From Acidobacteriota bacterium (GTDB lineage: Bacteria; Acidobacteriota; Polarisedimenticolia; J045), in contig JAUZRX010000063.1 of the NCBI GenBank assembly GCA_030949985.1, positions 6,855-70,854 on the forward strand: a DNA stretch of 64,000 nucleotides, given 5' to 3'. This document shows, one piece after another, positions 5,098 to 51,061 of the stretch. A model generated the notes under the pieces. The model did no database searches. It saw only the letters and a list, made by a program, of their open reading frames with translations, and was not told where the DNA came from. The translations under genes and the position numbers were made by a program. Numbering within the stretch: position 1 is the stretch's first letter; each line of letters opens with the position of its first letter.

Positions 5098-5700
5098 ATG
5101 GCCGATACCCTCTTCACGCCCACGGAAGTGACCGCCGACCTGACGGCGCTCGAAAAACTGCTCCGGCGCGTTGCCATCGAGTGGGAGATGTTCATCAACC
5201 AGTCGGTCCCATGGCCGCCCCATCAGCGGCAGGCGGAGATCGAGGCGATCATCCGCCACTACCTCAAGACCCCGCCACGACGCACGGCCGACCGTTTCCG
5301 CTTCAACACCCTGGTCCACCGCTACCGCACGAGTTGCGAACTCTGGGCGCGACGAGTCCGCCGCAGGGAGGCTTCCGGCCAGGGCCCGCGACAGCGCGGC
5401 AGAAGGGGCCGGGGCGCGGAACAGGAACCGACCCGGGCCCGGGTGCTCCACCAGGTGCGGACACGCGAAGGCAAGACCAGCGGGGACCAGATGCGGGACC
5501 TCTACCGCGCTTTCCGGGATGCCCGGCGGGCCCGGGGTCAGGCGGTTTCCCGCCTGGCCTACCGGGACTTCGTCCGGCGCATCGACAAGAATCTTCAGCA
5601 GGCTCGACGCCGGGTCGGGGGGCGCGACCTGGAGTTGCGGGTCGACGAGGTCGGTGGCAAGGTGAGAATCACGGTACGCCCGGCCCGCGACGAGTCCTGA
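5098..5700 (+). CDS. Hypothetical protein (Arg-rich C-terminal half)
   Basis: ATG at 5098 in the tail of a long spurious frame. N-terminal 100 aa look protein-like (…EKLLRRVAIEWEMFINQSVPWPPHQRQAEIEAIIRHYLK…); the rest is R-rich and could be a GC artefact. Confidence 0.35.
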   Translation: MADTLFTPTEVTADLTALEKLLRRVAIEWEMFINQSVPWPPHQRQAEIEAIIRHYLKTPPRRTADRFRFNTLVHRYRTSCELWARRVRRREASGQGPRQRGRRGRGAEQEPTRARVLHQVRTREGKTSGDQMRDLYRAFRDARRARGQAVSRLAYRDFVRRIDKNLQQARRRVGGRDLELRVDEVGGKVRITVRPARDES

Positions 5701-19619: not shown

Positions 19620-20468
19620 TCACCGCCCCCCCCCCTCCACGACGCCGCCTTTCGGAGAGTCCACGGTGCAGGCATCGGGATCGAAGCTCAAGGGCCGGCC
19701 CGACGCTGCGCGCGGCAGCGCGGACAGCAGACCGCTGTGCAACAACTCCTCGAGTCTCCGCGGGCAACGCCCATGGCGTTGCCGGAAGGCAGTCAGCGCC
19801 CGACGCGTATCCCGCACCGCGATCCGAGTCCGGGTCTGTTCGAGCCACATGGCGACCACCTGGGCCGTCTTCTCGTCGGGGGGATCCTCCAGGATGCGCT
19901 GATACTCGGCCAGCGCGTCTTCCAGGCTGCCCGCCTTCTCGAGCATTCTCGCAGCGAGGCGGGTCAGCTGCGGGGGAGCCCCCGGAGCGCCGGACGCTCT
20001 TCTCCAGTAGTCCCGGGCCCGGAGGTAACGCCGGTCGTTGTAGGCCTCCCAGCCGGCCCAGTAGGCGAGCTCCCAATTGTCCGGCATCCGCTCGAGTCCC
20101 AGGTCGAGCAGCTCGAGAGCCATATCCGTGTTGCGGGCCTCGAGGGACATGATCATCGCTCCCACCAGGTAGACCTCGACGTAGCGAGGATCGAGTTCGG
20201 TGATGGCTCCCGCAAAGATCTCCCGCAGATACTCGAAGCGGGAGTCGTCGTCGTAGTTCGAGTAGTACTGGATCGACCAGATGTAGAGCAGGTCGGCCAG
20301 GGTCTCCTCGTGCCCCAGGGACAGCGCGCGCAGATAGGGCCCCTGGGGCAGGTAGAGCAGCGAGGCCTGGGGGGAGGCCTGCCGGTGGCCTTCGAGCCAC
20401 GCGCGTCCCTGCGCCATGCCCGCCGCCAGCATCGCCGCCAGCACCAGCCACGGCAACCAACGCCGCAT
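19620..20468 (-). CDS. Secreted helical-repeat accessory protein (PilG-position protein of a PilGHI-like module)
   Basis: ATG at 20468 overlaps the permease stop (ATGA). Signal peptide MRRWLPWLVLAAMLAAGMAQG. Helical repeats (…YIWSIQYYSNYDDDSRFEYLREIFAGAITELDP…). Confidence 0.6.
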   Translation of the reverse strand: MRRWLPWLVLAAMLAAGMAQGRAWLEGHRQASPQASLLYLPQGPYLRALSLGHEETLADLLYIWSIQYYSNYDDDSRFEYLREIFAGAITELDPRYVEVYLVGAMIMSLEARNTDMALELLDLGLERMPDNWELAYWAGWEAYNDRRYLRARDYWRRASGAPGAPPQLTRLAARMLEKAGSLEDALAEYQRILEDPPDEKTAQVVAMWLEQTRTRIAVRDTRRALTAFRQRHGRCPRRLEELLHSGLLSALPRAASGRPLSFDPDACTVDSPKGGVVEGGGR

Positions 20469-21235
20469 CAGACCAGGTCCCGTCGGCGGAAGGCCAGCGC
20501 GGCGACCAGCAGGAGCATGCCGGCCCAGGCCAGTTCGTAGATCGTGGCCCACGCGATGCGATCGAAACCCACCGGCACACCATGGACGACAAATGCCCGG
20601 ATGTCGCCGAATTCCAGGTCCGGCAGCACCAGGTAGAGCCCGTGCACCAGCTTGCGGGCCCAGGTGCCCGCCGGCAGTTTCTGCTCGAGCAGGGTCAGCG
20701 CCCAGCACAGATGGCCGACGACGTAGATCGCCGAGGTGAACAGGGCCGAGAAGATCGGCGTCGAAAAGGACGAGAAGAACACCGCCGCCGCGGTGATGAA
20801 CATCAACTCGACCCAGAGCATGAAGATCGCCGCCAGCAGCGAGTGAGTGTAGGCCCCACGCCACAAGGTCATGCCCACCAGCAGCCATCCGAGGGCCGCG
20901 GTGTTGATGGAGATCGTCGCCGCCAGGCCGAGATACTTGCCGAAGATGTACTCCCAGCGGGCCACGGGCGCCGAGAGCGTGACCTGTACGGTACGTCGTT
21001 CCATCTCCCGGAAGAGGATACCCACGCCCACGAAGAGGGCGACCAGCAGGCCCAGCACGCTGATCGCCGACAGACCCAGATCTTTGATGATCTTCGCGTC
21101 GTCCCCCACGGTCATCATCGACAGCACTCGGGAGAAAAGCATCAGGGCCGCGGCAAAGACCAGCAGCAGGTAGAGCACGCGGTGCCGGATGGCTTCGGCC
21201 AGGGTCGAGTGGGCGATGGCCAGAATCCTGCTCAC
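20468..21235 (-). CDS. ABC-2-type transporter permease (PilI-like)
   Basis: 255 aa, six predicted TM helices. Overlaps the ATPase gene by 4 nt. Confidence 0.8.
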   Translation of the reverse strand: MSRILAIAHSTLAEAIRHRVLYLLLVFAAALMLFSRVLSMMTVGDDAKIIKDLGLSAISVLGLLVALFVGVGILFREMERRTVQVTLSAPVARWEYIFGKYLGLAATISINTAALGWLLVGMTLWRGAYTHSLLAAIFMLWVELMFITAAAVFFSSFSTPIFSALFTSAIYVVGHLCWALTLLEQKLPAGTWARKLVHGLYLVLPDLEFGDIRAFVVHGVPVGFDRIAWATIYELAWAGMLLLVAALAFRRRDLV

Positions 21236-22185
21236 GATGCATCCCCCGCTTCCGCGCCCTGCAGGGTGCGCAAGAAGAGATCTTCGAGAGTCTCCCGCTG
21301 GGGAGTCAATGACAGCAGCGTTCCACCACCGGCCTGGACGGCGGCGACGATCTCGGGGGCCCGGGCCTCCGCCGGCAGGCGCCAGAGGCGCTCGTCGCCC
21401 CGTTGGGCGATCAGCTCACCCCCGGCGAGTGCGCCGCCGCCGAGCACCTCCACTTCCCAGCGCAACACGCGACGCTCGCGCTCGAGGCGGCCGAGATCCC
21501 GCACGGCGAGCAGTTTCCCGCCCTTGAGAATCGCCACACGATCACAGAGCATCTCGGCGTCGGCGAGCACGTGGGATGCGAAGAGCACCGTCACGCCCTC
21601 TTCCCGCAGGCCGAGGATCAGATCCCGGAACTCCCTGCGGCCGATGGGGTCCAACCCGCTCATCGGCTCATCGAGAATCACGAAGCGGGGGTTGCCGATC
21701 AGCGCCCGGGCCATCCCGGCACGCTGCACCATGCCCTTGGAATACTTGCGCAGAGGTCGGTCCATCGCCGCCGCCAGGCCTACCCGCTCGAGCCACTCGC
21801 CTGCGCGACGACGCCGATCCGTCCTCTCGATACCGTGCAGGCGACCGGCGAATTCCACCAGCTCCCGCCCGGTCAGGTCGTCGGGAAAGTAGGGACTCTC
21901 GGGAAGGAAGCCGACTTCCTTCCGCGCGGCGGGCTCGCTGGCCCTGCGACCCATCAGCCGCACCTCGCCCCGATCCGGGAAGATCAGCCCCAGCGCCAGC
22001 TTGATGGTCGTCGTCTTCCCCGCCCCGTTGGGACCGAGCAGACCGAGGATCTCCCCTGGCCGTACCGCCAGGTCGAGCCCGTCGAGGGAGAGCAGAGGGC
22101 GCTGCCAGAAGTGCGTGCGATAAGACTTGGAGACGCCCTCGTAGACGAGGGGCGCCCCGGCTTGTGTCGGGCTGCAAGTGGCCAT
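21232..22185 (-). CDS. ABC transporter ATP-binding protein (PilH-like)
   Basis: Walker A GPNGAGKTTT, signature YSKGMVQRAGMA, Walker B FVILDEPMSGLD. Confidence 0.85.
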   Translation of the reverse strand: MATCSPTQAGAPLVYEGVSKSYRTHFWQRPLLSLDGLDLAVRPGEILGLLGPNGAGKTTTIKLALGLIFPDRGEVRLMGRRASEPAARKEVGFLPESPYFPDDLTGRELVEFAGRLHGIERTDRRRRAGEWLERVGLAAAMDRPLRKYSKGMVQRAGMARALIGNPRFVILDEPMSGLDPIGRREFRDLILGLREEGVTVLFASHVLADAEMLCDRVAILKGGKLLAVRDLGRLERERRVLRWEVEVLGGGALAGGELIAQRGDERLWRLPAEARAPEIVAAVQAGGGTLLSLTPQRETLEDLFLRTLQGAEAGDAS

Positions 22186-22249: not shown

Positions 22250-25200
22250 TCAGGCTGGAACCAGCCAGCGAGAGAGCACGGCTTCGACCTGGCCCTGGTT
22301 GATCGGTTTGGCCAGATAGTCGTCCATACCCGCCGCCAGGCACTTCTCCCGGTCACCCTCCATGGCGTTGGCGGTCAGGGCGATCACCGGAATCCGCCCC
22401 CTCTCCCCGGGAAGTTGCCGGATCTTCTCGGTGGCTGCGAAACCGTCCATGCCGGGCATCTGGCAGTCCATGAAGACCAGCGCGAAGTCTTCCCGCCTGA
22501 TGATCTCCAGCGATTCCTCTCCCCCCGAGGCGCACACCACCCGGCAACCGAGGCGGGTGAGCAGCTTCTCGGCGACGCGGAGGTTGATCTTGTTGTCATC
22601 GACCACCAGCACCTTGGCGGCCTGCCAGTCCGCCGGACGGGCCACCGGGGTCTTCGGTGCCGGCACTCTCCTCTCTTCGTGCGGCTTGATGCCGGTCAGC
22701 AGCTTGCGCAGCAGGCGTGCCGGGTGGACCGGCTTGGAGATCCGTTCGCAGGTTCCCGCCCGCTCGCAGACCATGCGCGCTGGATCCGCACCCAGGGGAA
22801 GCAGGAAGAGAACCCGAACCTCCCGCAGGGATGGATGGGCGTGCACGGCAGCCGAGAAATGCAGCAGATCGTTCTGCGTCTCGCCCACGTCGACCAGCAA
22901 CCAGTCGCAACTCCCCTGGAAAGCGCTGATCTCCTCGGCGCCGGCGGCCTCGATCACCTGCGCTCCGAAGAGTTCGAGCTGTTCCCGCAGCAGCGCGCGC
23001 AGGCTGGCGTTCTTCCCGACCAGGAGGATCCGCCGGCTTTTGAGCGGCGGCTCACGGCCGACGGCCAGGTTGCCGCCGAGTTCCACGTGGAACCAGAAGC
23101 AGCTTCCCTCACCCTGACGGCTGGCGACACCGATGGCGCCTCCCATCTGCTCGACGAGATGGCGACAGATGGTCAGTCCCAGGCCCGTCCCTCCATAGCG
23201 ACGGGCGAAGGAACTGTCCTCCTGGGAAAAGGGTTCGAAGATCTTTTCCCGGGCCGCGCTCTCGATACCGATTCCCGAATCCTCGACTTCGAATCGAACC
23301 CGGATCCGCCCGGGCTGCCCGGCGTCGCCGGCCGAGACACGAATCGTCACCTGTCCCCGCTCGGTGAACTTGATCGCGTTGCCCACCAGGTTGGTCAGCA
23401 CCTGGCGCACGCGGTGGGGATCTCCAACGACCGATTCGGGCACATCGCTGGTCACCAGGTAACCCAGCTCCAGGCCCTTTTTCGCGGCACGAGCCGCCAT
23501 CAACGCCGCCACGGAGGCGACCATCTCGGACAGGTCGAACTCGATCTCTTCGAGGCCGATCCGGCCGGCCTCGATCTTCGACAGGTCGAGCACATCGTTG
23601 ATGATCGCCAGCAGTGCCTTGCCGGAGCTGTGGATGATCTCGGCATACTCGGCCTGCTCGCTGCTGAGTTCGGTCCTCAGCAGCAGCTCTGTCATACCCA
23701 GTACACCATTCATCGGCGTGCGGATCTCGTGGCTCATGGTAGCCAGGAAGGCGGACTTCGCCTCCGCCGCCTGCCGGGCGGCGGCCAGGGCCTCCTGCAG
23801 CGCCTGGTTGGCCCGGTTGAGTTCCCGCTGGTGGGCTTCGAGATCGCGGGTCCGCTCCCGCACCTTCTCTTCCAGATCCCGGTTCTGGCGCTCGATACTG
23901 CGGATCTGGTAGCGGAAGGCGCCGTACACCATCGCGCCCACCAGGAACGCGGCCATCGTGTAAAACCACCAGGTTCGCCAGTAAGGCGTCCTGATACGGA
24001 AGCCGATCCGGGCGGGCACGGGGGAAGTCACCCCATCCGCGTTGGTCGCCTGGACCAGGAAGGTGTATTCACCGTAGGGCAGGTTGGAGTAGGTGGCGCT
24101 GGTGCGGGAGGTCGGAGCCATCCAATCCTTGTCGAAGCCCTCGAGCTTGTATCGATAGCGCACCTTGGTCGGCGCCGTGGTGGAGATGCCGATGAAGTCG
24201 AAAGTCAGGTGGTTCTGGTTGTACCGCAGCTCGAGGCCATCGGTGAAGTCGATCGGCTCGAGGAAGATCTGGACTCCCGTGATATGCACCTTGGGCGGAA
24301 CCATGTTGCGCCGGTCGGCACGGCGGTTGTAGCGCACGGCGCCGTCGATCGTACCCAGCCAGATATAGCCCCGATCATCCTTGTAGACGGCGTGGACGTT
24401 GGTCTCCAGGCCCGCGAACCCCTCGTCCTTTCCGAAATGAGTGAAGGCCCCGGGCACGCCGTCCCACTTGTACAGACCGTTGTTGGTGCCCACCAGCACG
24501 CGGTCGTCGTCCGTACAGGCCACGAGGTAGACATTCTCCCGGCTGACACGACTCCCCTCGGAGACGTTGACGAAGCGGCCGCCGCTGAAGTAGTAGACGC
24601 CCCCGTCGTCCGTTCCGATCCACAACCGCCCCCGCGAATCCTCGTCGATGGAGTTGAGGGACAGGTGCCCGAGCCCGCGCTCCCGGCCGTAGAAGACGAA
24701 GCGTCCCATGCGGCCGCCGGTTGCAGGCAGGTAGCGGGCGAGCCCCATATCCGAAGTCGTCAACCAGATCCGATTCTCCCGGTCGACGAAGACGTCGTAG
24801 ACGGAAGTGTCGGTCTTGCCCTCCCGCAGGCGGAAGAGATCCAGCTTCCCCTGCGCGAGATCCGCCCCGGGCGCTTTCGGCATCCGGTAGCGGGCCACGC
24901 CGTGCCCCAGCATGCCGAACCACAAGCTCCCGTCAGGCCCCGCCGTCAACCCGAGCAGACGATGGGTCGGCAACCCGTCATCGACGCCCAGGTAGTCCAC
25001 CTCGCCGCTGGCCGGATCGTAGCGGGCCAGGCCCCCTCGATCGATGGTGAACCAGACCTGGCCGGCATCGTCCACGTGAACGCCCCGTACGCTCAGTGCC
25101 GGCAGGCCGGCACTCGCCGCCAGTACGAGATCGGGAGGACCCACATGGTCGGGATCGGGATAGGGCACGTGGATCAGGCCGCCCTGGGTACCAAACCAGA

Positions 25201-26305
25201 GGTCCCCCTGCCGGTCCTGGGTCGCCTCCCAGATCACGGACTGGAGCGGATCCTCCCCCTGGAGGAGGACCGTGAAAGGACTCGGGCGGTAGAGGGAGGC
25301 ACCCCGCCCGTCCGTTCCGAGCCAGACATTCCCTTCGCGATCCAGCATCAGCGCGCGGAAGCGCGTGAAACTGAGGCCATCATCGATGCCATAGCTCTGC
25401 AGGACCCGGATCCGGTGCCCCGTCGGGTCGGGCGCAACGCGCAGGACTCCCCCCCCGAAACTGGCCAGCCACAGGACTTCACCCGTGACACCGGCAACCG
25501 GCAGGATCTGCTCGATGGCATACATCGGCAGAGGTTGATCGGGCTCGAGAGGCGAGTCCAGGGAAGCACAGTCCCTGTCCGTGGCCGGACAGGCGTAAAG
25601 GTCGCCGTTCTCCGCACCGAACCAGAGATTGCCGGCTCTGTCGATCGCTGCCGTGCGAAAGGCGACTTCGGCGGCACCCCCGATCTTGCGGAAAGGCCCC
25701 TCCACGGATACGGCCCCGCGGGCATCGGCTCGCGCCCTGTAGAGTCCGCGGTCGGTGGCCAGCCACAGGTAGCCCCGGCCAAAGACCACGCCGAAGACCT
25801 TGTCCGGCGGGAGGTGCAGCGGATCGACCCGCCGCAGCCAGCCCTCACCGTCGAAGCGCTGGAGCCCGTTGCCTTCGGTAGCCAGCCAAAGGTTGCCGGC
25901 GGCGTCCTCGGCCAGGGCGTGCACCTCGCCGGGGCTTCCCTTCTCGGGCGGGGGGAAGACGGAAAAACCGTTCCCGTCCCAACGGCTGAGTCCGCCGGCG
26001 GCGTGAGCCAACCAGACTCGGCCCCCGCGATCGACGAACGCCGCAGTGATACGGTTGTCGAGCAGGCCATCCCGGGTCGTGAACGTTCTGAAGTGCAGGC
26101 CGTCGAAGCGCGACAGACCGTACTGCGTGCCCAGCCAGATGTAGCCGTCCCGGTCCTGGACCATGGCCTCGACCTGGGACTGGCTCAGGCCATCTTCCAC
26201 CGTGAAATGGCGAAAAACGGCCTCCTCCGCCACGGATGCGAGGCCGGGCAGAGACAGGAAAACGACGAGAGCCCCCAAGGGGCCCAGTGGCCGGAGGCGT
26301 TTCAA
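22250..26305 (-). CDS. Hybrid sensor histidine kinase with periplasmic two-component-regulator beta-propeller sensor
   Basis: TTG start, signal peptide, about 750 aa of propeller repeats (…GYIWLGT…GLSRFDG…) and a Y_Y_Y region. TM, HisKA ([17 protein letters not shown]), HATPase_c, then C-terminal receiver ([19 protein letters not shown]…[12 protein letters not shown]). Confidence 0.85.
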
Positions 26306-26546: not shown

Positions 26547-27731
26547 TCAGCGCTCCGGTTCACCCGCCGGAATCCCCGCCTGGCGGGCCAGGGTGAGATA
26601 GAGGCTTTCCTGGCGGCGAACCATGGTATCGATATCCCACGCCTCGACCCGCCGGCGGGCCCGACGGCCCATGGCCCGCGCCCGCCGGGGATCCGCCAGC
26701 AGGGCGGTCACCCCCCGGGCCAACCGCTCCACGTCACCGGCCTCCGCCAGAAAGCCCGTCTCGCCCTCTTCGACGGCCTCGGGGCTGCCGTCCACCGCCG
26801 TCACCACCACGGGCCGTCCCGCCGCCATCGCCTCCGGGATCACCCTCGGCAGCCCTTCGTGCCGGGAGGTGAGCACCAGCACGTCGATGGCCGCGAGAAC
26901 CTGCTCGGGATCCCGGCGCCAGCCCAGCAGGTGGAAACGCCCCTCAAGGCCCCGCGAGCCGACCTCGGCCTCCACCGCGGCCCGCAACTCGCCATCGCCG
27001 GCCAGCAGGAAGTGGGCCCCGGGTACCTCCCGCCTGACCCGCTCGGCGACCAGCACGTAGTCCAGCGGCGCCTTCTGGGGTTTGAGACAGGCGATCATGC
27101 CGGCCAGTGGAGCCTCGGCGGGCAGGCCCAGAGCCTGGCGCGCCCGGCGCCGGATCGTCTCATCCTCGGCGACCGTCTCGAAGCGATCGATCTCGATTCC
27201 GGAGTAGATCACCTCGAAGGCCTCGGCGGCGGCGATCTTGCGACGCTGCCCTTCGAGAGCGTTGGCCCGGGACACCGCCACGAGCTGGGTGCTCAGTTGT
27301 GCGGCGAATCTCTCGAGGGAAACGAAAATCCTCTGGCCCAGGATCGACTGGAGGGGCGTAAAACCCCACCCGTGCACGGTGTGCACGATGATGGGAACCC
27401 CGGCCAGAACCGCCGCCAGGCGCCCGAGAATCCCCGCCTTGGACGAATGGGTGTGGACGATCTGCGGTGCCAGCCGCTGCAGGCGACGGCGCAAGTCGGC
27501 CAGGGCCAGCAGGTCGCGCCCCGGTGCCACGGGGCGGGCCAGATGCGGGCAGGTCTCGAAGTGCAGCCCTTCGACGGCACGAGCCTGCGCTTCGAGCAGA
27601 CCGCCGGAGCCCGCCACCAGGATCGGCTCGAAGCGATCGCGGTCCAGGTGTGCGACGGTATAGAGAGTGTTCTGCTGGGCCCCACCCAGTTCGAGCTGGG
27701 TGATCAGGTGGGCCACCTTCAGCCGGCGCAT
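26547..27731 (-). CDS. Glycosyltransferase family 4 (GT-B)
   Basis: MRRLKVAHLITQLELGGAQQ N-domain; C-terminal EGLPRVIPEAMAAGRPVV (E-x7-E-like). ORF opens at TTG 27803; internal ATG preferred. Confidence 0.8.
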   Translation of the reverse strand: MRRLKVAHLITQLELGGAQQNTLYTVAHLDRDRFEPILVAGSGGLLEAQARAVEGLHFETCPHLARPVAPGRDLLALADLRRRLQRLAPQIVHTHSSKAGILGRLAAVLAGVPIIVHTVHGWGFTPLQSILGQRIFVSLERFAAQLSTQLVAVSRANALEGQRRKIAAAEAFEVIYSGIEIDRFETVAEDETIRRRARQALGLPAEAPLAGMIACLKPQKAPLDYVLVAERVRREVPGAHFLLAGDGELRAAVEAEVGSRGLEGRFHLLGWRRDPEQVLAAIDVLVLTSRHEGLPRVIPEAMAAGRPVVVTAVDGSPEAVEEGETGFLAEAGDVERLARGVTALLADPRRARAMGRRARRRVEAWDIDTMVRRQESLYLTLARQAGIPAGEPER

Positions 27732-34064: not shown

Positions 34065-37000
34065 TCAGCCTCCTTCCGCGGGGCGATCCCCGGTATCTCC
34101 GGTGACCGGCGAAAGCGCTTCACACCGCTGTCGCACCCCGGCGACCTCCCGGGCGGACAAGCGCAGCAAGGCGCTGCCCCTCCGGGAATCGGGGCGGACG
34201 CCCGACAGCCGGCGGGCCAGGGACTCCAACGCGCTCCACTGCTCGCAGGCCGGACCGGCACGTCCCTGTTCGATCAGCACACGGGCCAGATCGAGGCGGG
34301 CGGCGAGAAAGTTGGGCTCGGTGTGGAGAGCGATCCGCAGATCGTCCTCCGCCGCGTGGAGTCGCCCCAGGTGAGCGCGCAACCGGGCCCGGTGTCGGCG
34401 GGCGAAGACGTCCTCCGGACGGCGAGCCAGGGCCGCGGACCAGCCCGCGAGAGCCCGCGCGCAGGCGCCCTGCTCCGGTAGCAGATCACGGCAGAGCCGT
34501 TCCTCCAGCTCCGCCCAGCGTACCCAGGCCAGGGGGTCGTACGGCCGCATCCGGCGAGCCAGAAGAGCTCTTTCCCGGCTGCTGTCGACGTGGGCGAGCC
34601 TTCCCACCGGTCTTTCCAGCATGGCCAGCGCGTAGCGTCCCGAGCGCGGCTCGAGCCGCAAGGCCCACTCCGGCCGCCCCGCCCGGAACGCCCGATCGGC
34701 GGCCCACGGCAGCACCTCGCCGGCCACCACGGCGAGGATCACCGCCAGTGCCACGGCCCGCCGCCGGGCGCACCCTTCGAAAACCCACCCGGAGCGGTCC
34801 CGGGCGACACCCGCCAGGCAAACCCCGGCCAGCAGACTCGCCACGACCCAGGTCGCCGGGCGTTCCGAGAAGAGGTCGTCCACCAGGCCATGAGCCAGCA
34901 GCGCGGAAACGGCGGCGAGGGCCGCGACCGGAGCGAGGCTCCCGGCGCGGCGGGCAGCGGCCCAGGCGCGGCACCAGCCCAGGCCCCCCAGAGCCAGCGC
35001 GATCAGGCCGGCGGGAAGCCCCAGCGCCAGCAGCAGCGCCAGCGGATCACTGTGAGGACCGCTGAAGGTGCGCGACCACCGGGCCACCGACCCAGGATCT
35101 TCGAAGCTCCACCGCGGAGCCAGGGGGCCGAAGCCCCCCGGGCCGAAACCCAGCCAGGGGCGATCGAACAGGGCTTCGAGGGCCGCGCGCCAGATGCGCG
35201 TTCGCGTCCACGCGTAGGGGTCGCCATAGCCCAGTCGCCAGACGACCACCGCAGCGCCGAAAACCAGGGCCACCACCACGACGGCGGTCACCGCGCGCCT
35301 CAGGCGGCGGCTCGAGGCGCAGGAGGCGAAGACTCCGCCGGCGGCGACCAGGGCCAGCAGACTGGCCCGCGAGCCGCCGGAGAGACCCGCGAAGACCAGC
35401 AGCAGGGCCAGGAGCGCCCGGCCACGGGAGACTCGTATGCCGGCACCGAGCAGGGCGGCGGCCCCAACGACCAGGAACGTGCCCAGGTGCCCGGGGTGGA
35501 GAAAGTCACCGGCCGGCCGCAGGGGGTTGGGTGTCCCGAGAGGCGGCGCCCGGGACGCCACCGCCACTCCCGCCGCCAGCAGGCCCTTCTGCACCAGCCA
35601 GAGGCCCGCTTCGAGACCCGCCGCGGCGGCGACGACGGTCAGGCAGATCCGTATCCAGTGGGGATTCTCCCGGGCCAGGAAAAACGAAAGGCCCAGAATC
35701 GCCCCCGCCGTGAGCAGGGAGAGCCAGCCGTCCCGCGCGGCCAGCGGAGCCGGTGCGCAGGCCGCGGCCAGGGCTGCCCACGCGCCCAGAACCAGCGCAG
35801 CGCCCCCCCCCCATGCCGGCCACCGGCCCCGCCCCTCCGGGGAACGGGCCAGCAACCAGGCCAGGACCGCGAAGGCCACCACCACGGCCCGCACCAGGCG
35901 CACCCCGGGCAGCGCGCCTCCCTCGCCGAAAGCCGAGATCAGGCAGACCAGGCTCAGGGCCACGGCGAGGGCCCCTACCAGGCCCGACCGGCGCAGACTC
36001 ACGGCCACGACCAGCAGGATCAGGCCACCGACCAGGACAAGGGTGTCGTCCCACGGCTGCCAGGCCGGAGCCGACGCCGGGACGGAACCTTCACCGGGCG
36101 CCGGCACGCTCTCCGCCCCGATCAGCCCCTTCTCGTCGAAAGCCCGTTCGATGGCTTCGATCTGCCGCCGGATCGCCGAGGCCGCCGGATGCCGGATCGC
36201 CGCCAGTCGATAGGCCTCCCAGGCGGCGGAGACCTCTCCCCGCGCCAGGCGCCAGCGGGCCAGCAGGTGCCAGGGGGCCGGCGAGGCACTGTCGAGGCGC
36301 AGCGGCACCTGCAGCAGCCCTCCCAGGACAGCCAGGGAACGCCGGTCACCGGCGGCCAACAGCAGGTTACCCGCCGTTACGGTCCGGGAGGTGCTCCAGG
36401 GAGCGATTCGCGCGGCCCGCGCCGCGACCTCCGCGGCGGACACGGGGCGCTCCGCGGCCTCCAGCATCGCCCGATCCATCAGTCCGCGACTGGCGGTTTC
36501 CATCGACCACCATCCCCCCGCAGCCAGGAGCAGCACCAGGGCGATCGCGCGCGCCACGAAAGGGGCGGCCCCGGTCGGGGGACGGTCGCTCGCGCCAGGG
36601 CGGGCGAAGACCATGCCCGCCAGTATCGCCGCCGGCACCGCCACACCCGGCAGGTAAGCGGTGAAGTCCACCAGGTTGTGAACCACGAAGGCGAGCAGCG
36701 CGGCGAGCAGCCACAGGCCGTCGCCGGCCCCCGAGACCCCGCGCCAGCGGCGGAAGAAAAACACCGCTGCGGCGCAGAGCAGTGCCAGGGCGGGCCAGCC
36801 GCCCTCCGCGGCGATCTGCAGCCAGGAGTTGTGGGCGTACAGGGTCTCCGAATCGCCGGCCCGGCGGTAGCGTGGATAGAGCGCCCCGAAGGAACCCAGG
36901 CCGGTTCCCGTCACCGGCTGCGCCGTCGCCATCAGCACGGCACCTCGCCAGTTGCCCAGGCGCAATCGCAGGGGATTGTCCGGCCGGGAGAGATCCGCCA

Positions 37001-37790
37001 CGTCGACCGGTCGCAGGGCGACCAGCGCCAGGGCCAGCACGACCGCCGCCGCACCGCCCAGCACCCGCCAGCGCGGGGCGACGCGCCGGCGAGTGACGAC
37101 CAGGACGGCGGCCAGGCCCACGACCAGTCCCAGCCAGGCACCCAGCGAGGCGGTCAGCACCAGCCCGAGGAGGATCAGCGGCAGGCAGGCGATGACCAGC
37201 GGCCGGGAGGACCCGCGGTCCGCCAGGACAGCGACGGCGGCCAGTCCCGCCAGCACCAGCGCCCCGGCCAGGGCGGCGGGCACCACGTGGGTGCCGAACA
37301 CCCGCCCGTGTTCGAGGCGCAGGATCATCTCGGCGGGCAGGCCGAGTCGCCGGGCCGCGGCCGCATCGAGGGCCATCAGTCCCAGACGCTGGGCCAGGGC
37401 CAGCAGCCCGAGACCCGCGCCGATCAGCGCCAGCACGAGCGGTACCTTCGCCCGGGCCGCCGCGCCGGCACCCCGGGCGGCCCAGAAAGCGGCGAGGGCC
37501 AGCACCCAACCGGCGACCACGCCGAGGCTGCGACCCGGAGCGAGGGAGACCGCGAAGTGAAAACCACCCAGCCCCACCACGCACAGGGCGGTGACGATCC
37601 CCGGGGCGGGGACAGCCACCCACAGCGCGGGAGCGAGAATCAGCGCCAGCAGAACGCCGGACAGGGGGTGAACCTCCGGCGGCAGTCCCAAGGCGATCCC
37701 GCCGGCCACGGCCACGAGAGCCGCCGGCCAGGTTCGGCGATCGACGCCCCTGGACGAGGTGTCGACAGGGCCATGACCTTCGGCCGTCAT
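34065..37790 (-). CDS. Giant polytopic protein with two O-antigen-ligase (Wzy_C)-like signatures and C-terminal TPR domain
   Basis: 1,241 aa, more than 20 TM helices. Motif 1 SETLYAHNSWLQIAAEGGWPALALL; motif 2 TFSGPHSDPLALLLALGLPAG. C-terminal about 250 aa are soluble TPR-like repeats. ATG overlaps the upstream stop (ATGA at 37787-37790). Confidence 0.7.
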   Translation of the reverse strand: MTAEGHGPVDTSSRGVDRRTWPAALVAVAGGIALGLPPEVHPLSGVLLALILAPALWVAVPAPGIVTALCVVGLGGFHFAVSLAPGRSLGVVAGWVLALAAFWAARGAGAAARAKVPLVLALIGAGLGLLALAQRLGLMALDAAAARRLGLPAEMILRLEHGRVFGTHVVPAALAGALVLAGLAAVAVLADRGSSRPLVIACLPLILLGLVLTASLGAWLGLVVGLAAVLVVTRRRVAPRWRVLGGAAAVVLALALVALRPVDVADLSRPDNPLRLRLGNWRGAVLMATAQPVTGTGLGSFGALYPRYRRAGDSETLYAHNSWLQIAAEGGWPALALLCAAAVFFFRRWRGVSGAGDGLWLLAALLAFVVHNLVDFTAYLPGVAVPAAILAGMVFARPGASDRPPTGAAPFVARAIALVLLLAAGGWWSMETASRGLMDRAMLEAAERPVSAAEVAARAARIAPWSTSRTVTAGNLLLAAGDRRSLAVLGGLLQVPLRLDSASPAPWHLLARWRLARGEVSAAWEAYRLAAIRHPAASAIRRQIEAIERAFDEKGLIGAESVPAPGEGSVPASAPAWQPWDDTLVLVGGLILLVVAVSLRRSGLVGALAVALSLVCLISAFGEGGALPGVRLVRAVVVAFAVLAWLLARSPEGRGRWPAWGGGAALVLGAWAALAAACAPAPLAARDGWLSLLTAGAILGLSFFLARENPHWIRICLTVVAAAAGLEAGLWLVQKGLLAAGVAVASRAPPLGTPNPLRPAGDFLHPGHLGTFLVVGAAALLGAGIRVSRGRALLALLLVFAGLSGGSRASLLALVAAGGVFASCASSRRLRRAVTAVVVVALVFGAAVVVWRLGYGDPYAWTRTRIWRAALEALFDRPWLGFGPGGFGPLAPRWSFEDPGSVARWSRTFSGPHSDPLALLLALGLPAGLIALALGGLGWCRAWAAARRAGSLAPVAALAAVSALLAHGLVDDLFSERPATWVVASLLAGVCLAGVARDRSGWVFEGCARRRAVALAVILAVVAGEVLPWAADRAFRAGRPEWALRLEPRSGRYALAMLERPVGRLAHVDSSRERALLARRMRPYDPLAWVRWAELEERLCRDLLPEQGACARALAGWSAALARRPEDVFARRHRARLRAHLGRLHAAEDDLRIALHTEPNFLAARLDLARVLIEQGRAGPACEQWSALESLARRLSGVRPDSRRGSALLRLSAREVAGVRQRCEALSPVTGDTGDRPAEGG

Positions 37791-39292
37791 GGAGCGCCCT
37801 GCGCGTCGGGCCCCGTCCGATGGACCCGGTAGACAGTGAAGTACATCGGATCGGGCCCCCGGACGAACATCCCGTCAAAGCGGAACAGGCCGATCCGCTC
37901 GAGCGCCAGGCCGGGGATCTCCCGCCGCAGCGGCTCGGGCGCGATCTCCACCAGCACCTCCGGGGGATGGAGGGCGAGGTAACGATCGATCGCACCCTCC
38001 CTTTTGAAGGGTACGATTTCGGGAGTCGCCAACCCATTGAGATCGAGGATCCTGCGTCCCGAGAGCAGTCCCAGGGCCCCGATGTTCGGTGTGGCGATCA
38101 CCGCGTCGAGGGGCGTTTCGGCGGCCAGACGCCGGGCCAGGGGGAAGACCACGGTCTGCATCGAGCGGCCGTAGGCCCGGGTCCGGGGCACCACGACGGT
38201 GGTGGCCAGCACCAGGTTGCCCGCCAGCGTCGCAGCCACCACGCCGCCCCACAGCCAGTTTCCCCGCACGCCATCCAGCCTCCGCGCCGCCGCCACCATC
38301 CCGGCCATGCCCACGGCCACCACCAGCGCGGTCAGGGGCAGCAGGTAGCGCGTGTAGACCCGGACGTGGCGTAGGGCATAGACCAGCAACAGCAGCACGG
38401 CGAACAGGAGCACGACGCGCACCAGGTCGCCGCGCCCCGGGGCGCGCTCCGAGCGCGCCTCGCCCTCCCCCGCCCAGAGCCACGCGGCGACCGGCAGGAA
38501 CAGCAGGGCCGGCAGCTGGGTCGACGCGACAACCACCAGGACTCGAGCGGCGGCTTCGGAAGCCCCGATGTTCATCGCGCCCAGGCTGCCCTTGGCCGCC
38601 ATGGTCGAGGGCAGCACGGTGCCCCAGGTCCGCAACGCGAAGACGCTCCAGGCCACGGCCACCAGTCCTCCCGCGAGCAGGTCCCCGGCCAGTCGGGACT
38701 CCCTGCCGCGGAAAGCCCGCCAGGCCTCCATGAGCACCACCGCGAAAGTGAACAGGGCCAGCTCGGGTCGCACCAACGGAGCGACGGCCAGCAGGAGGCT
38801 GCCCAGGCGATCGACGAGGCTGCCCCGCCCGGCCCGCACCCGGATCAGCGCCGCCCCGCACACCACGGCCACCGCCAGACCGGTCTCCATGCCGCTCCAC
38901 AGCCAGCGCGCGGTCCAGGCATCGGCCGCCAGCGCGAGGCTGGTGGCCCACGCCGCCCGTACATCGCCGGCCAGGCATCCGGCGAGCCGGGATGCGCAGA
39001 TGATGCCCACCACCCAGAAAAAAGCGGAGAGGAACTGGGCGACCCGCACTCCCCCGAAACCCACCTTGCCCAGCGACACCAGGGTCAGCAGCCAGGCTCC
39101 GGAAGAGGCGACGTCGACGTTCTGATGAGGGTTGAATCCCCAACCGCGGCCGGAGAGCACGTTGTCGACCACGCGCAGATAGATGAACAGGTCGTCCGGC
39201 TGAAAGTCGAGACAGGGCAAGGCGGCGACCACTGCCGCCAGGGCGGGGAGCATCGCCGCCCATCGGTGCGTGTGCTGCCCGCTGTCGATCAC
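37787..39292 (-). CDS. GT-C-superfamily-like integral membrane glycosyltransferase (putative)
   Basis: 501 aa. TM1 followed by LDFQPDDLFIYLRVVDNVLSGRGWGFNP (acidic DD loop motif as in ArnT/PMT/arabinosyltransferases), about 11 TM helices, soluble C-terminal domain. GTG at 39292 or ATG at 39253. Confidence 0.45.
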   Translation of the reverse strand: MIDSGQHTHRWAAMLPALAAVVAALPCLDFQPDDLFIYLRVVDNVLSGRGWGFNPHQNVDVASSGAWLLTLVSLGKVGFGGVRVAQFLSAFFWVVGIICASRLAGCLAGDVRAAWATSLALAADAWTARWLWSGMETGLAVAVVCGAALIRVRAGRGSLVDRLGSLLLAVAPLVRPELALFTFAVVLMEAWRAFRGRESRLAGDLLAGGLVAVAWSVFALRTWGTVLPSTMAAKGSLGAMNIGASEAAARVLVVVASTQLPALLFLPVAAWLWAGEGEARSERAPGRGDLVRVVLLFAVLLLLVYALRHVRVYTRYLLPLTALVVAVGMAGMVAAARRLDGVRGNWLWGGVVAATLAGNLVLATTVVVPRTRAYGRSMQTVVFPLARRLAAETPLDAVIATPNIGALGLLSGRRILDLNGLATPEIVPFKREGAIDRYLALHPPEVLVEIAPEPLRREIPGLALERIGLFRFDGMFVRGPDPMYFTVYRVHRTGPDAQGAP

Positions 39293-39448
39293 AAAGGTGA
39301 AGGCTCCCGCCGTGGACTGGATCTCCGCACGCTCATCCCGGAGACATCATACTCGCAGCGCGCCTTTTGGGAACCCGCCCTGCCGCCCAACACTGCGGAT
39401 GCGACCCTGACACGGGGCGCCCCATGATCCTCCACCCGGAGCCGAGGA

Positions 39449-39922
39449 TCAGTCGGGAGCGTTGAGAAAGCCCCCGTCGGCGAAAACGATGTCGTAATCG
39501 AACTCTCGAGCCGTCGCGCGGGATATGTTCTGAGGGCCGTCGACCCCGTCCCGGCCGTAGCTCTCGATCGTGTAATGGCTGCTGCCCGAGCTGTAGGCCA
39601 GGTCGTTTCCCCAGGCGTCGGTCGTCTCGACCCGCTTGTAGACCTGATCCGACAAGGCCGCCGACAACTCGGCTGCGGTAATGCCGTTGCGCGGGAATGC
39701 GCTGTGGTCGTTCGAGTAGGCCTCGACGGCCGTGCCGACGTTGCGGATGGTGGTCATGGTCTTGCGCTGGCGGCTCTTGTCGAGAGCAGACTGGAGATTG
39801 ACTACCGCGATGGCGGCGATGATACCGATCACGGCGACGGTGACCAGCAGTTCGACGAGAGTGAACCCCAGCGCCTGCCCGTACCGCGCGCGGGGACCGA
39901 GAGAATCCCTGTCCTTCTCCAT
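39449..39922 (-). CDS. Type IV pilin (second, minor or alternative pilin) with 19-aa leader
   Basis: [30 protein letters not shown]|FTLVELLVTVAVIGIIAAIAVVNL (G-1, F+1, E+5). C-domain shares …RQ(R/K)KTM…VGTAVEAYS…SYG(R/K)DG…FD(Y/D)DI(V/I)F(A/Q)DG(G/A)F… with pilA. Confidence 0.85.
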   Translation of the reverse strand: MEKDRDSLGPRARYGQALGFTLVELLVTVAVIGIIAAIAVVNLQSALDKSRQRKTMTTIRNVGTAVEAYSNDHSAFPRNGITAAELSAALSDQVYKRVETTDAWGNDLAYSSGSSHYTIESYGRDGVDGPQNISRATAREFDYDIVFADGGFLNAPD

Positions 39923-40007
39923 CTCCCTCCTCCTCCACGATCCTCCCCCGGCGAAAAGAAACCGGGGGCAGGCAGCGAGGCCCGCCCCCGGCCATCTCGC
40001 CCAAGGG

Positions 40008-40466
40008 CTACTGCTGCTGGCCTTCAGGCCACTGGACGAAGGCACCATCCTGGAAAATGATGTCATCGTCGAAGCTGGTGGTCTTACCGCCGGTGGCGGT
40101 GGTCTTGGTGCCGTCCTTTCCGTAGGACCGGACCGTGTAGTTGGCCCCTCCGGTGGCGGACTGGTACTTCAGGGCGTTGCTCCAGCCATCGTCATCCGGG
40201 CACTTCTTGATGTAGACCGGCTCGAGGTGGGTGTCGAGATTCCCGTTGACATCCGACTCGGTGGTGATGGTGGGGTAACGGTTGTTGTCCACCGAGTAGG
40301 CCTCGACAGCCGTGCCGACACTGCGCATATCGGCCATGGTCCGCTTCTGACGACCACGGTCGATGGCGTTGAGCAGGTTCGGGATGGCGATCGCGGCGAT
40401 AATGCCGATGATGGCCACCACGATCAGCAACTCGATGAGGGTGAATCCACGTTCGTTCCGACGCAT
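40008..40466 (-). CDS. pilA: Type IVa major pilin PilA
   Basis: GGGAGG RBS. MRRNERG|FTLIELLIVVAIIGIIAAIAIPNLL, a classic class III signal. 152 aa. Thr/Ser/Gly-rich C-terminal stretch KDGTKTTATGGKTTSFDDD. Confidence 0.9.
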   Translation of the reverse strand: MRRNERGFTLIELLIVVAIIGIIAAIAIPNLLNAIDRGRQKRTMADMRSVGTAVEAYSVDNNRYPTITTESDVNGNLDTHLEPVYIKKCPDDDGWSNALKYQSATGGANYTVRSYGKDGTKTTATGGKTTSFDDDIIFQDGAFVQWPEGQQQ

Positions 40467-40516: not shown

Positions 40517-40532
40517 AGCAATCTCGGTGCCA
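40517..40532 (-). promoter_or_regulatory. Sigma-54 (RpoN) promoter TGGCAC-N5-TTGCT upstream of pilA
   Basis: Minus strand reads TGGCACCGAGATTGCT about 50 nt upstream of the pilA ATG. A perfect -24 GG/-12 GC match, consistent with the adjacent sigma-54 activator PilR. Confidence 0.75.
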
Positions 40533-48111: not shown

Positions 48112-49470
48112 CTATGCGCCCCGCGCTTTCCGGCGCGCGAGGAACTCCTCCATGAAACGGGTGGAGAAATCGCCGTCCCGGAACCCGGGTTCCGCCACCA
48201 GCTCCTTGAGCAGGGGCAGATTGGTCGTGATGCCTTCGATCACGAAGAAGTCCAGGGCCCGGCCAAGGCGGGAGAGCGCCTCGTCGCGATCCCGGCCGCG
48301 CACGATCAGCTTGGCGATCATCGAGTCGTAGTGCGGCGAGACCTGGTAGCCGGCGTAGGCCGCGGTATCGATGCGGACTCCAGGCCCCCCGGGAGGATGG
48401 AAGGTCGTAATCGGCCCGGGACAGGGGCGGAAGGTCCAGGGGTCCTCCGCCGTCACCCGGGCTTCGATGCTCCACCCGCGAGGCTCGAGATCGTCCTGGC
48501 CATAGCCCAGGGGCTCCCCGGCCGCGATACGGATCTGCTCCTTGAGAAGATCGAGACCGGCGACGTTCTCCGTCACGGGGTGTTCGACCTGGATCCGCGT
48601 GTTCATCTCCATGAAATAGAACGAACGGTCTTCGTCGAGCAGGAATTCCACGGTACCCGCGTTCTGGTATTCCACCGCCCGGGCGGCCTGCACCGCGGCA
48701 CGCCCCATCTCGACCCGCAGGGCCTCGTCGAGCGCCGGAGAGGGGGCCTCCTCGATCACCTTCTGGTGGCGCCGCTGGAGCGAGCACTCCCGTTCGAAGA
48801 GGTGAACGATATTCCCGTGCAGGTCCCCGAGGATCTGGAACTCGATGTGGCGCGGCCGGACGATGAATTTCTCGAGATACAGCTCTCCCGAACCGAAGCC
48901 GGCCAGAGCCTCGGACCGACAGGTCTCGACGGCGCTTTCCAGGTCCTCCGGCCTTTCGACGACCCGCATCCCCCGACCGCCGCCCCCGGCCGCCGCCTTG
49001 ACGATCACCGGATAGCCGATTGCCTTGGCCAGCTCCGCCGCCTCCTCGAAAGACTCGAGGGTTCCCCGGCTGCCGGGAATCACGGGCACACCGGCGCTGA
49101 TCATCGCGGCCCGTGCCGCGGCCTTGTCGCCCATCTGCCGAATCGTCGCCGCCTGGGGTCCGATGAAGCTCAGGCCGCACTCGGCGCAAATCTCGGCGAA
49201 GTGCGGATTCTCGGCGAGAAAGCCATAGCCGGGGTGGATCGCATCGGCACCGGTGATCTCGGCAGCCGAGATGATGGCCCCGATGTTGAGGTAAGAGTCG
49301 GTCGACCGGGCAGGACCGATACACACGTCCTCGTCGGCGAAACGGACGTGGAGCGAATCCTGGTCGGCGTCGCTGTGCACCGCCACGGTGCGAATGCCCA
49401 GTTCCTTGCAGGCCCAAATGATCCGCAGCGCAATCTCGCCGCGGTTGGCGATGAGTATCTTCTCGAACAT
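48112..49470 (-). CDS. accC: Acetyl-CoA carboxylase biotin carboxylase subunit
   Basis: [17 protein letters not shown]…, ATP-grasp, …[14 protein letters not shown]…. 452 aa. Confidence 0.9.
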
Positions 49471-49479
49471 GGTCGTCGT

Positions 49480-49947
<468 letters not shown>

Positions 49948-50057
49948 CTCTTCCTCCGCTTTCTCCCTCCACCCGATTCCCGTCGGGTGGCAAGGCCAGG
50001 AAAAAGGCACCCGGTGTCAGGGTGCCGCGGGGATTGTGGCCGAGCGATTCGAGCGGG

Positions 50058-50471
50058 TCAACCCGGGCCTGAGGCTGCGGCGGGCCCGAGACGGTCGGCG
50101 AGGCGACCGGCGAGGACCCGGCCCGCCAGCCTCATACGTCCCAGATAGGGTTCCGGGCCCGCATCGAGAACCAGCACCAGCCCCACCGAGGGGACCCGGC
50201 GCAGCACGGCGATCCCGCCGCTACCGGTGACGATCACCTCCTCGCTGTCACCGATCCGGGCCGCGCGCAGAAGACCGGCCGCCGCCGCCATCCCTCCCAG
50301 GGCCTCGGCGCCCAGCTCTTCCAGGTCGCCGTCCAGGGCGGGATCGAAGCAGGCTCCGTCGACGAGTACGCCGTCCAGGTCGACCAGCACGGCACGGCGA
50401 ACGCCCGGGCACAGGCGGGCGGCGTCAGCCAGCAGCGAAGCCAGCTCCCCCCCTGTCATCGTCGTCACCAT
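50058..50471 (-). CDS. Roadblock/LC7-domain protein (MglB-like)
   Basis: 137 aa. …LVDLDGVLVDGACFD…SEEVIVTGSGGIAVLRRVPSVGLVLVLDA… alpha-beta-beta-alpha-beta roadblock fold pattern. ATG at 50471. Confidence 0.65.
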   Translation of the reverse strand: MVTTMTGGELASLLADAARLCPGVRRAVLVDLDGVLVDGACFDPALDGDLEELGAEALGGMAAAAGLLRAARIGDSEEVIVTGSGGIAVLRRVPSVGLVLVLDAGPEPYLGRMRLAGRVLAGRLADRLGPAAASGPG

Positions 50472-50489
50472 GGGCCGGGCCCCGTCACG

Positions 50490-51044
50490 TCACTGGGTGC
50501 CGCAGCTCGTCGCCGTCTCCACCGGCACCTGCCCACGAGCCGTCATCGGTTCGCCGCTGGCATCCTCGCCGCGGAAGACCAGGTCGATCCTCCCGCGCTC
50601 ACCGAGACTGAAGAACCCGGCCGCGATATCCGTGGCCAGCACCGTGGTCAGCTCCTGGCTCGCCGTGCCCCCGGCAGGGACGGTGATGGTCACCGATTCG
50701 CTGCGGTCGGGCGGCGCGCTCCCATCGAGGATGTAGTTGATGTCGACCGACGAAAAGATCACGTCGTTCCAGGCACCGCCGGCCTGCCCCCGCAGACGTG
50801 AGTCGAAGTTGATGGTCTGCGTCACGGAAGAATAGACCGTGGTTTCCTTGGTCCCGTCGCCATCCAGATCGACCAGCTCGCCGTCCACGTCGACGCAGGC
50901 AGTGAGCGGATTGACGCTGGATACGGTCACGACGTTCTCCGACACGCCCGGATCGTCCGTCGCGTTGTTGCAGGCCACCGCCGTCAGCACGACCACCAGG
51001 CCCAAAGCCGCCAGCGGCGACCAGACTCTCAGCTTTTCCATCAT
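50490..51044 (-). CDS. Small beta-rich lipoprotein encoded at the 3' end of the pilMNOPQ operon
   Basis: Frame opens at TTG 51065, which overlaps the pilQ stop. ATG at 51044 with GGAG RBS gives MMEKLRVWSPLAALGLVVVLTAVAC|NNATDD (signal peptide plus lipobox-like AVAC). Mature part is Thr/Ser/Val-rich. Confidence 0.6.
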   Translation of the reverse strand: MMEKLRVWSPLAALGLVVVLTAVACNNATDDPGVSENVVTVSSVNPLTACVDVDGELVDLDGDGTKETTVYSSVTQTINFDSRLRGQAGGAWNDVIFSSVDINYILDGSAPPDRSESVTITVPAGGTASQELTTVLATDIAAGFFSLGERGRIDLVFRGEDASGEPMTARGQVPVETATSCGTQ

Positions 51045-51061
51045 GGTGCCCGTCTCCATCC

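Follow-up and report, generated by a model that had tools for sequence, protein, structure and literature searches.

To our knowledge, O-glycosylation of pilins by enzymes encoded next to pilA is known only from a few Proteobacteria, in which pilin O-glycosylation influences pilus function, phage resistance and immune recognition and supplies enzymes for bioconjugate vaccines. The known pilin O-oligosaccharyltransferases (O-OTases) TfpO, TfpM and PglS, together with many PglL homologues, are Wzy_C enzymes encoded beside pilin genes (PMC9829042, PMC3643930), and 21 of 31 PglL homologues are found in such a position (PMC3643930). TfpW, a GT-C enzyme encoded after pilA, carries a periplasmic tetratricopeptide repeat (TPR) domain (bioRxiv 10.1101/2020.04.19.049825). 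Here we analyse a 64,000-nucleotide stretch of an Acidobacteriota genome (contig JAUZRX010000063.1 of assembly GCA_030949985.1; the whole stretch is referred to as the window, with a GC content of about 68%), in which two pilin genes are followed by genes for a 501-amino-acid (aa) GT-C protein and for a 1,241-aa protein with two Wzy_C modules. The locus is best called a conserved, uncharacterised, pilin-linked candidate glycosylation island, the core of which is a two-module WaaL-like enzyme. On balance we favour, with modest conviction, its interpretation as a pilin O-glycosylation island within a type IVa pilus cluster, a variant of the TfpO/TfpM/PglL and TfpW theme; it is gene context alone that points to the pilins as the acceptor of the glycan.

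Read along the minus strand, pilS and pilR are followed by a sigma-54 promoter, pilin1, a hairpin, pilin2, the 501-aa gene, the 1,241-aa gene and a gene for gamma-glutamyltranspeptidase (GGT). A preliminary description of this DNA, made by a model from the sequence, had given the two pilin genes, the two membrane-protein genes after them and a coupled GGT, and all of its elements were found where it had placed them. The 1,241-aa open reading frame (ORF; 34065-37790, minus strand) shares with the 501-aa ORF the ATGA stop/start overlap announced there, which can be read directly in the sequence. The doubled Wzy_C domain was recovered by Pfam when the two halves of the protein were scanned alone, with 66.8 bits for the N-terminal and 41.2 bits for the C-terminal half against a gathering score of 31.7. 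The C-terminal TPR region was also confirmed: it is weak in Pfam, and in a comparison of the family profile with solved structures it matches a TPR of the OGT type with an E-value of 6e-21. The preliminary description had missed a second TPR-like domain, located between the modules, where positions 472-573 of the family profile match TPR proteins, more weakly than the C-terminal arm does. When residues 1-580 were aligned with residues 581-1241 by HHalign (probability 99.3%, E 3.9e-20, 479 columns), H320 was paired with H913, R277 and W281 with R863 and W867, and the first arm with the C-terminal TPR arm. Since the two halves are paired throughout, including the His, the Arg/Trp positions and the TPR arms, the protein is, by this alignment, a tandem duplication of a Wzy_C-plus-TPR unit.

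Module A (aa 1-430; 36501..37790, minus strand) has 13 transmembrane (TM) helices and the invariant residues R277, N280, W281, H320 and E329, and is followed by TPR-like arm 1 (aa ~445-555; 36126..36458, minus strand), which forms six helices in the AlphaFold2 (AF2) model. Module B (aa 578-1036; 34683..36059, minus strand), with invariant R808, R863, W867, H913 and D915, is followed by the C-terminal TPR arm 2 (aa ~1040-1200; 34191..34673, minus strand), which is likewise predicted to be periplasmic. Lys and Arg residues in the short loops between the helices of the AF2 model number 28 per 125 residues on the cytoplasmic side versus 7 per 100 on the periplasmic side, a count that assumes helix 578-619 to be a two-helix hairpin split at RRSG; this positive-inside bias supports a periplasmic location of the two His loops and of the two TPR arms.

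WaaL is the best structural and profile match of the protein, and the fold of the membrane domains is of the WaaL type. A profile of module B, built from the split-gene relatives described below, matches the WaaL structure 7tpg with an E-value of 5.9e-9, and R808, R863 and H913 are aligned to the TRGA, RLKIW and HAHND motifs of that enzyme. The Arg/Arg/His set comprises R215, R288 and H338 in E. coli WaaL, where these residues were shown to matter, and R224, R298 and H349 in PglL (PMC3643930). In phmmer searches of PDB sequences, each single Wzy_C membrane domain gave nothing useful. Module A retains R277 and H320 and has Leu216 at the position of the first Arg of WaaL and module B. Module B thus holds the full Arg/Arg/His set and module A does not. 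The tasks of the two modules probably differ; they might act on two acceptors or sites, for instance, or one might handle the glycan and the other transfer it. The same Leu216, and the fact that the module-A profile matched no solved WaaL, could also indicate that one module is catalytic and the other a degenerate scaffold, so that the protein would be a single enzyme with an extra membrane domain, an arrangement that fits any acceptor. This we consider very unlikely, as it is module A that has the higher Pfam Wzy_C score (66.8 bits) and as its five invariant residues hold in 28 fused sequences and also in the split genes at about 30% identity.

Its domains, its fold and its key residues place the 1,241-aa protein in the Wzy_C/WaaL superfamily. 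Like TfpO (PilO; Pseudomonas aeruginosa and Acinetobacter) and TfpM (Moraxellaceae), it is a polytopic Wzy_C enzyme encoded 3' of a pilin gene on the same strand; in TfpO and TfpM the conserved His is required and the lipid-linked glycan is put on the pilin in the periplasm (PMC9829042). Unlike these enzymes, which are single modules of 420-470 aa without TPR, it comprises two modules, each with a TPR arm, within 1,241 aa or, in relatives, in genes of ~560 and ~640 aa. Furthermore, TfpO and TfpM modify a C-terminal Ser/Thr of the pilin whereas those of the window terminate in Gln or Asp, and the phylum differs. PglL (Neisseria) and PglS (Acinetobacter baylyi) are similar in combining Wzy_C with the Arg/Arg/His set of the WaaL type and differ in being single modules of 520-600 aa with a non-TPR C-terminal periplasmic domain; neither PglL_A (PF15864) nor Wzy_C_2 matched the 1,241-aa protein even at E <= 1. 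WaaL of Cupriavidus metallidurans (PDB 7tpg/7tpj) shares the membrane-domain fold and, with module B, the key residues, but it is a single 12-TM module of ~400 aa without TPR that uses lipid A-core as acceptor and is encoded in lipopolysaccharide (LPS) loci. Since PglL_A is lacking, the protein is not a single module of 420-470 aa, and the pilins end in Gln or Asp, it is on these features outside the characterised O-OTase classes. Two other assignments were rejected on score: an IctB-like bicarbonate transporter (NCBIfam TIGR00947, 54 bits versus a cut-off of 366) and a PEP-CTERM/exosortase-linked ligase (TIGR03097, 23 bits versus 188). The NCBI copy of the protein (P0021) has 1,101 aa, being identical over residues 1-1086 and then ending early, which suggests a frameshift or a different stop in that assembly; the window reading frame is backed by homologues through the TPR arm.

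Full-length homologues of the 1,241-aa protein form about 30 clusters, all of 1,180-1,280 aa. In distant loci (gp22 Acidobacteria, Polarisedimenticolia and others; L025, L026, L027, L032, L034, L035, L038 and L040) each module has a gene of its own (~560 and ~640 aa), the two genes overlap by 4 nt, and both products pass Pfam Wzy_C. A phmmer search of 1.84 billion representatives returned 862 proteins at E <= 1e-10; of the 150 matches listed, 16 were fused clusters with a length of 1,180 aa or more, and most of the others were single-module clusters covering residues 20-550 or 600-1200. Because such clusters predominate among the matches listed, the split pair is, by this search, a commoner state than the fusion. 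The fact that the gene pair is fused here suggests that both modules work together, and the coexistence of split and fused forms provides a natural test of WaaL-like enzymes acting as heterodimers.

For comparison of gene order, 31 loci carrying the family were retrieved and the window proteins were mapped on them by tblastn. In close relatives the order is pilB-pilT-pilC-pilS-pilR-pilin1-pilin2, then the GT-C gene where present, the Wzy_C pair, a GT2 glycosyltransferase, a WecA-like enzyme, an oxidoreductase, a GT4 glycosyltransferase, and the ATPase and permease of an ATP-binding cassette (ABC) transporter of the ABC-2 type; the same order is seen for L001 and L002 when precomputed genes with their Pfam domains are used. 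About 25 of the 27 loci that have upstream sequence carry a pilin gene 5' of the Wzy_C pair, mostly within ~2 kb, and it adjoins the pair directly in L007, L009, L013, L017, L019-L022, L038 and L040, whereas in the window pilin2 and the GT-C gene lie between. This adjacency persists at 28-31% identity (gp22, Polarisedimenticolia and others), in loci with a different set of glycan genes downstream (AsnB, DegT, Wzx, other glycosyltransferases). The synteny check proposed in the preliminary description therefore did not count against the link, the Wzy_C pair having stayed with the pilins in relatives down to this level of identity. In L038 the order is pilin-pilin-Wzy_C-Wzy_C/TPR-Wzx-GT2-GT2-GT4-GT4-GT9 and in L040 it is YfhO-PilR-unknown-pilin-Wzy_C-Wzy_C/TPR. 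One interruption was found in L011 (1811-9378), where an 8-kb insertion of the arginine-biosynthesis type separates the pilins from the Wzy_C gene; it contains genes for argininosuccinate synthase, semialdehyde dehydrogenase, carbamoyltransferase and an M20 peptidase.

The polytopic 501-aa protein (37787..39292, minus strand) has an identical counterpart, annotated as hypothetical, in an Acidobacteriota metagenome-assembled genome (MAG), and its ~17 close homologues are all on Acidobacteriota-type metagenomic contigs; a single distant match is annotated as an arabinofuranosyltransferase. No family was found for it in the Pfam or NCBIfam scans. The profile of its family, compared with the PDB, matches mycobacterial AftB (9dlf, chain 9dlf_C) with an E-value of 5.8e-29 over profile positions 16-346 (~330 positions), with the DD, SG-x-E-x-G-L and VRPEL motifs lining up with those of AftB. 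In 19 sequences D34, which follows the first TM helix, is invariant and D33 is conserved in at least 90%; both are aligned to the DD of AftB. The AF2 model (pLDDT 90.4, pTM 0.91) gave GT-C proteins as all of its best 24 Foldseek matches, AftB first, then ALG9, STT3, ArnT, AglB, AftA, PglB and the Emb proteins. The profile match, the fold matches and the DD pair together substantiate the GT-C-like character that had been proposed for this protein and narrow it to the AftB type, so that by profile and predicted fold it is a GT-C enzyme of this type.

Among solved structures, AftB (PDB 9dlf/9dlh) comes closest to the 501-aa protein in both profile and fold; it is larger (the solved chain has 669 residues) and differs in setting, the gene described here belonging to a Gram-negative pilus locus. 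AftB caps the cell-wall arabinan with decaprenyl-phospho-arabinose as donor. As in TfpW, the pilin arabinosyltransferase of group IV strains of P. aeruginosa, in which the DDx motif of the first periplasmic loop is essential (bioRxiv 10.1101/2020.04.19.049825), we find a pilin-linked GT-C protein with a DD motif in the first periplasmic loop and a TPR, predicted to be periplasmic, in the system. Compared by its described features, TfpW has 646 aa and a TPR of its own, whereas the last 100 residues of the 501-aa protein fold into a small alpha/beta domain in the AF2 model, Pfam detects no TPR, and the TPR is on the neighbouring Wzy_C protein. No D-arabinofuranose donor pathway (DprE1/DprE2/UbiA type, DPPR synthase) was seen among the window ORFs scanned.

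The combination of both enzyme types that had been noted at this locus does exist in the window, but the GT-C enzyme is an optional part of it: the gene occurs in seven loci, and about half of the close relatives lack it. At least eight loci are without it and have the Wzy_C gene straight after pilin2, and in one MAG the two are unlinked, the GT-C gene being alone in L003 and the Wzy_C pair in L011. In the split lineage the pilin directly upstream of the pair is preceded by a YfhO-like GT-C protein and a 599-aa protein, and an AsnB-type amidotransferase follows the pair. The YfhO-like protein has 808 aa, and its C-terminus is weakly similar to the protein-glycosylation proteins PgfM1/PgfM2 of S. 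mutans; it occurs with the conserved 576-599-aa protein, for which there is no family, in L026 (4536-8758) and also in L023, L027-L030, L035 and L040. A relationship of the 599-aa protein to the 501-aa GT-C family was ruled out (hhalign probability 1%).

Pilin1 (40008..40466, minus strand; 152 aa) matches Pfam N_methyl and T2SSG and NCBIfam GspG and the myxococcal PilA N-terminus, and occupies the pilBTCSR-pilA position. About 50 nt 5' of it is a perfect match to a sigma-54 (-24/-12) promoter, TGGCAC-N5-TTGC (40518..40532, minus strand), and 22 of 25 related loci have such a box 5' of their pilin1 orthologue. Just 3' of the pilin1 stop there is a terminator-like hairpin (39960..39993, minus strand) of 14 pairs, 11 of them GC, with a T-rich tail. 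Because of the sigma-54 box upstream and the hairpin after the stop, pilin1 is very probably the major type IVa pilin; the hairpin would be compatible with high pilin1 expression and partial read-through, and pilin2 and both membrane-protein genes may be expressed via such read-through or from a weak internal promoter. Pilin2 (39449..39922, minus strand; N_methyl and T2SSG) has 157 aa when read from the ATG at 39922, which is the likely start within an ORF spanning 39449-40066, and it is kept after pilin1 in close relatives. From gene context alone, pilin1 is the proposed acceptor of the glycan and pilin2 a possible second one. The Ser/Thr-rich stretches to which the preliminary description had drawn attention in both pilins do exist but are poor evidence, being poorly conserved and showing a pattern independent of the presence or absence of the GT-C gene, and were dropped as an argument for glycosylation. 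In the split-gene lineage the pilins terminate in ...GTQT, and those of L001 and L018 terminate in S or T. A third, divergent pilin (~40% identity to pilin1) precedes the GT-C gene in L002 (8471-8947), L012 (7998-8444) and L014 (7057-7503).

A pilin-directed function of the Wzy_C pair is favoured because the pair stays beside a pilin gene while the glycan genes change, because a GT-C gene recurs, from two unrelated GT-C families, and because each module bears a TPR arm predicted to be periplasmic. Several observations weigh against it. The C-termini of the window pilins (...EGQQQ in pilin1, ...LNAPD in pilin2) do not end in Ser/Thr as those of the TfpO/TfpM substrates do, and the conserved Ser/Thr of pilin1 comes down to a single Thr in a GGxT-x-F-D-x-D loop that looks structural. 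The PglL_A domain is missing from the 1,241-aa protein, no flippase was identified with confidence in the window, and no genes for synthesis of the GT-C donor were found among the window ORFs scanned. L039, which has a 1,055-aa fused form, lacks a pilin within 3.9 kb upstream and adjoins kdsA/kpsF-like genes of the 3-deoxy-D-manno-octulosonate (KDO) pathway, and a distant single-module relative, P0053, belongs to a Wza/Wzc exopolysaccharide cluster, in which it is flanked by Wzc and a phosphoglycosyl transferase. Finally, sequence cannot tell O-OTases from WaaL ligases or Wzy polymerases (PMC3643930), nor can the fold.

Given this ambiguity, the Wzy_C pair may instead be a ligase of LPS O-antigen or of another lipid-anchored surface glycan, or a polymerase plus ligase, with the downstream genes making that glycan and the pilins being mere neighbours. 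Wzy_C includes WaaL ligases as well as some Wzy polymerases (PMC3643930), WaaL is the top structural and profile match, and the KDO-pathway neighbourhood of L039 would suit such an enzyme, as would the Wzx gene of L038 and the family-9 (heptosyl-type) transferase at the end of that cluster; the glycan gene content, moreover, differs by lineage as it does in O-antigen loci. This explanation, however, leaves the pilin adjacency in about 25 of 27 loci unexplained across very divergent lineages with changing downstream genes, and two TPR arms per enzyme are foreign to characterised WaaL, whose solved entries have 403-413 aa. The window ORFs scanned included neither Wzz nor core-oligosaccharide genes. 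We consider an LPS-type role unlikely.

The pilA gene of Geobacter is GSU1496. A few genes 3' of pilA in that organism is xapD (GSU1501), encoding an ABC transporter needed for extracellular polysaccharide (PMC5585712), and this neighbour was all that we found in the literature on Geobacter. Because of xapD, polysaccharide loci linked to pil genes do exist, which again weakens the inference from adjacency, and the modules could correspondingly be polymerases of a pilus-associated exopolysaccharide co-regulated with pili, with the ABC-2 transporter as the exporter. Such a role would be in line with the Wza/Wzc setting of P0053, with xapD lying just 3' of pilA (PMC5585712) and with the ABC-2 transporter that closes the conserved cluster. 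It is nevertheless difficult to reconcile with the gene content, since Wza, Wzc and Wzz were found neither among the window ORFs scanned nor among the called genes of the related loci examined, and Wzx was found in one related locus only, L038. Furthermore, ABC-dependent pathways operate without Wzy polymerases, and the Arg/Arg/His set of WaaL ligases is intact in module B. An exopolysaccharide function therefore appears quite unlikely to us.

If the island does glycosylate pilins, the family assignments would suggest that synthesis of the glycan on undecaprenyl phosphate is initiated by a WecA-like enzyme, on the cytoplasmic side of the membrane, and that the GT2 and GT4 enzymes lengthen it. 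The glycan would then cross the membrane, with the ABC-2 transporter as the candidate exporter and Wzx in that role in L038, and the Wzy_C pair would move it en bloc to Ser/Thr of one or both membrane-anchored pilins before pilus assembly, the TPR arms possibly holding the pilin. The optional GT-C enzyme may use a polyprenyl-monophosphate donor to attach single sugars, either to the pilin itself, as TfpW does, or to the attached glycan in the manner of AftB. As a more specific and doubtful suggestion, the paired WaaL-like modules could function only together, as a two-site machine in the periplasm that is dedicated to type IV pilins. Each module, with a TPR arm to itself, would have a separate task: one may polymerise or hold the lipid-linked glycan and the other transfer it, or they may act on different pilins or sites. 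An interchangeable GT-C enzyme, AftB-like or YfhO-like, would add further sugars.

We found no report in the literature of pilin glycosylation in Acidobacteria, nor of TPR-bearing, paired or fused Wzy_C enzymes at pilin loci. If the pilin-directed interpretation is true, the principle of glycosylation by pilA-adjacent enzymes would reach Acidobacteriota, an abundant and almost uncultured phylum, through a structurally new type of enzyme with two WaaL-like modules and TPR arms, split or fused, and the Wzy_C and GT-C chemistries would be joined on one pilus. Since the claim rests on gene context, its present value is that of a well-defined hypothesis testable by cloning.

The lipid-linked-glycan operon that the preliminary description had placed nearby is present. 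Its GT2 glycosyltransferase (30171..31172, minus strand; Pfam PF00535), which is directly after the Wzy_C gene in relatives, may serve in glycan extension, and the WecA/MraY-family polyprenyl-phosphate N-acetylhexosamine-1-phosphate transferase (29158..30168, minus strand) in its initiation; the latter matches NCBIfam WecA with an E-value of 2.7e-25, under the cut-off of that model, and its orthologues carry PF00953. A PRK07208-like FAD/NAD-binding oxidoreductase follows (27719..29029, minus strand), its position being conserved in relatives, and then a GT4 glycosyltransferase (26547..27803, minus strand; Pfam Glycos_transf_1 and Glyco_transf_4), also conserved and likewise a candidate for glycan extension. 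The ABC-2 transporter (20468..22185, minus strand; ATPase 21232-22185, permease 20468-21235; Pfam ABC_tran and ABC2_membrane) comes straight after GT4 in L001 and L019-L022, whereas in the window a hybrid histidine kinase intervenes. This kinase (22250-26305, minus strand; 1,351 aa) has a Reg_prop/Y_Y_Y propeller, HisKA, HATPase and a receiver domain.

The GGT gene (32351..34063, minus strand; signal peptide; Pfam G_glu_transpept, E 7e-153) had been regarded as coupled to the Wzy_C gene. Its start codon at 34063 is indeed 1 nt past the stop of the 1,241-aa gene, which marks it as translationally coupled, and it has a GGAGG of its own before it; GGT was, however, seen solely in the window and in the closest relative, L005, while GT2 holds that position in other relatives. 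Because of this restricted occurrence it is a lineage-specific insertion and probably not part of the system, and it was rejected as a component. Between the GGT and GT2 genes, in the region 30973-32212, the opposite (plus) strand has a gene with HDOD/HD domains and a second ORF. This ORF (30973-31656, plus strand, another frame) overlaps the start of the HDOD gene by 14 nt and also that of the GT2 gene on the other strand; it may represent either the 5' portion of the HDOD gene, separated by a frameshift, or a non-coding ORF.

The preliminary description had also missed that a complete type IVa pilus cluster surrounds the locus (pilMNO-Q, pilB, pilT, pilC, pilS and pilR). The genes pilM/N/O and that of the secretin pilQ are at 51-56 kb and pilB, pilT and pilC at 43.8-47.9 kb. 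Directly upstream of pilin1, at 40.7-43.7 kb, are pilS (6TM_PilS/PAS/HisKA) and pilR, which encodes a sigma-54 activator. Between pilB and pilQ (48112-51065, minus strand) there are genes for a biotin carboxylase and for a Roadblock/LC7-domain (MglB-like) protein, and a 191-aa ORF with no family match. Elsewhere in the window (3550-5451, minus strand) is a gene for SelA, the selenocysteine synthase, because of which the organism probably uses selenocysteine.

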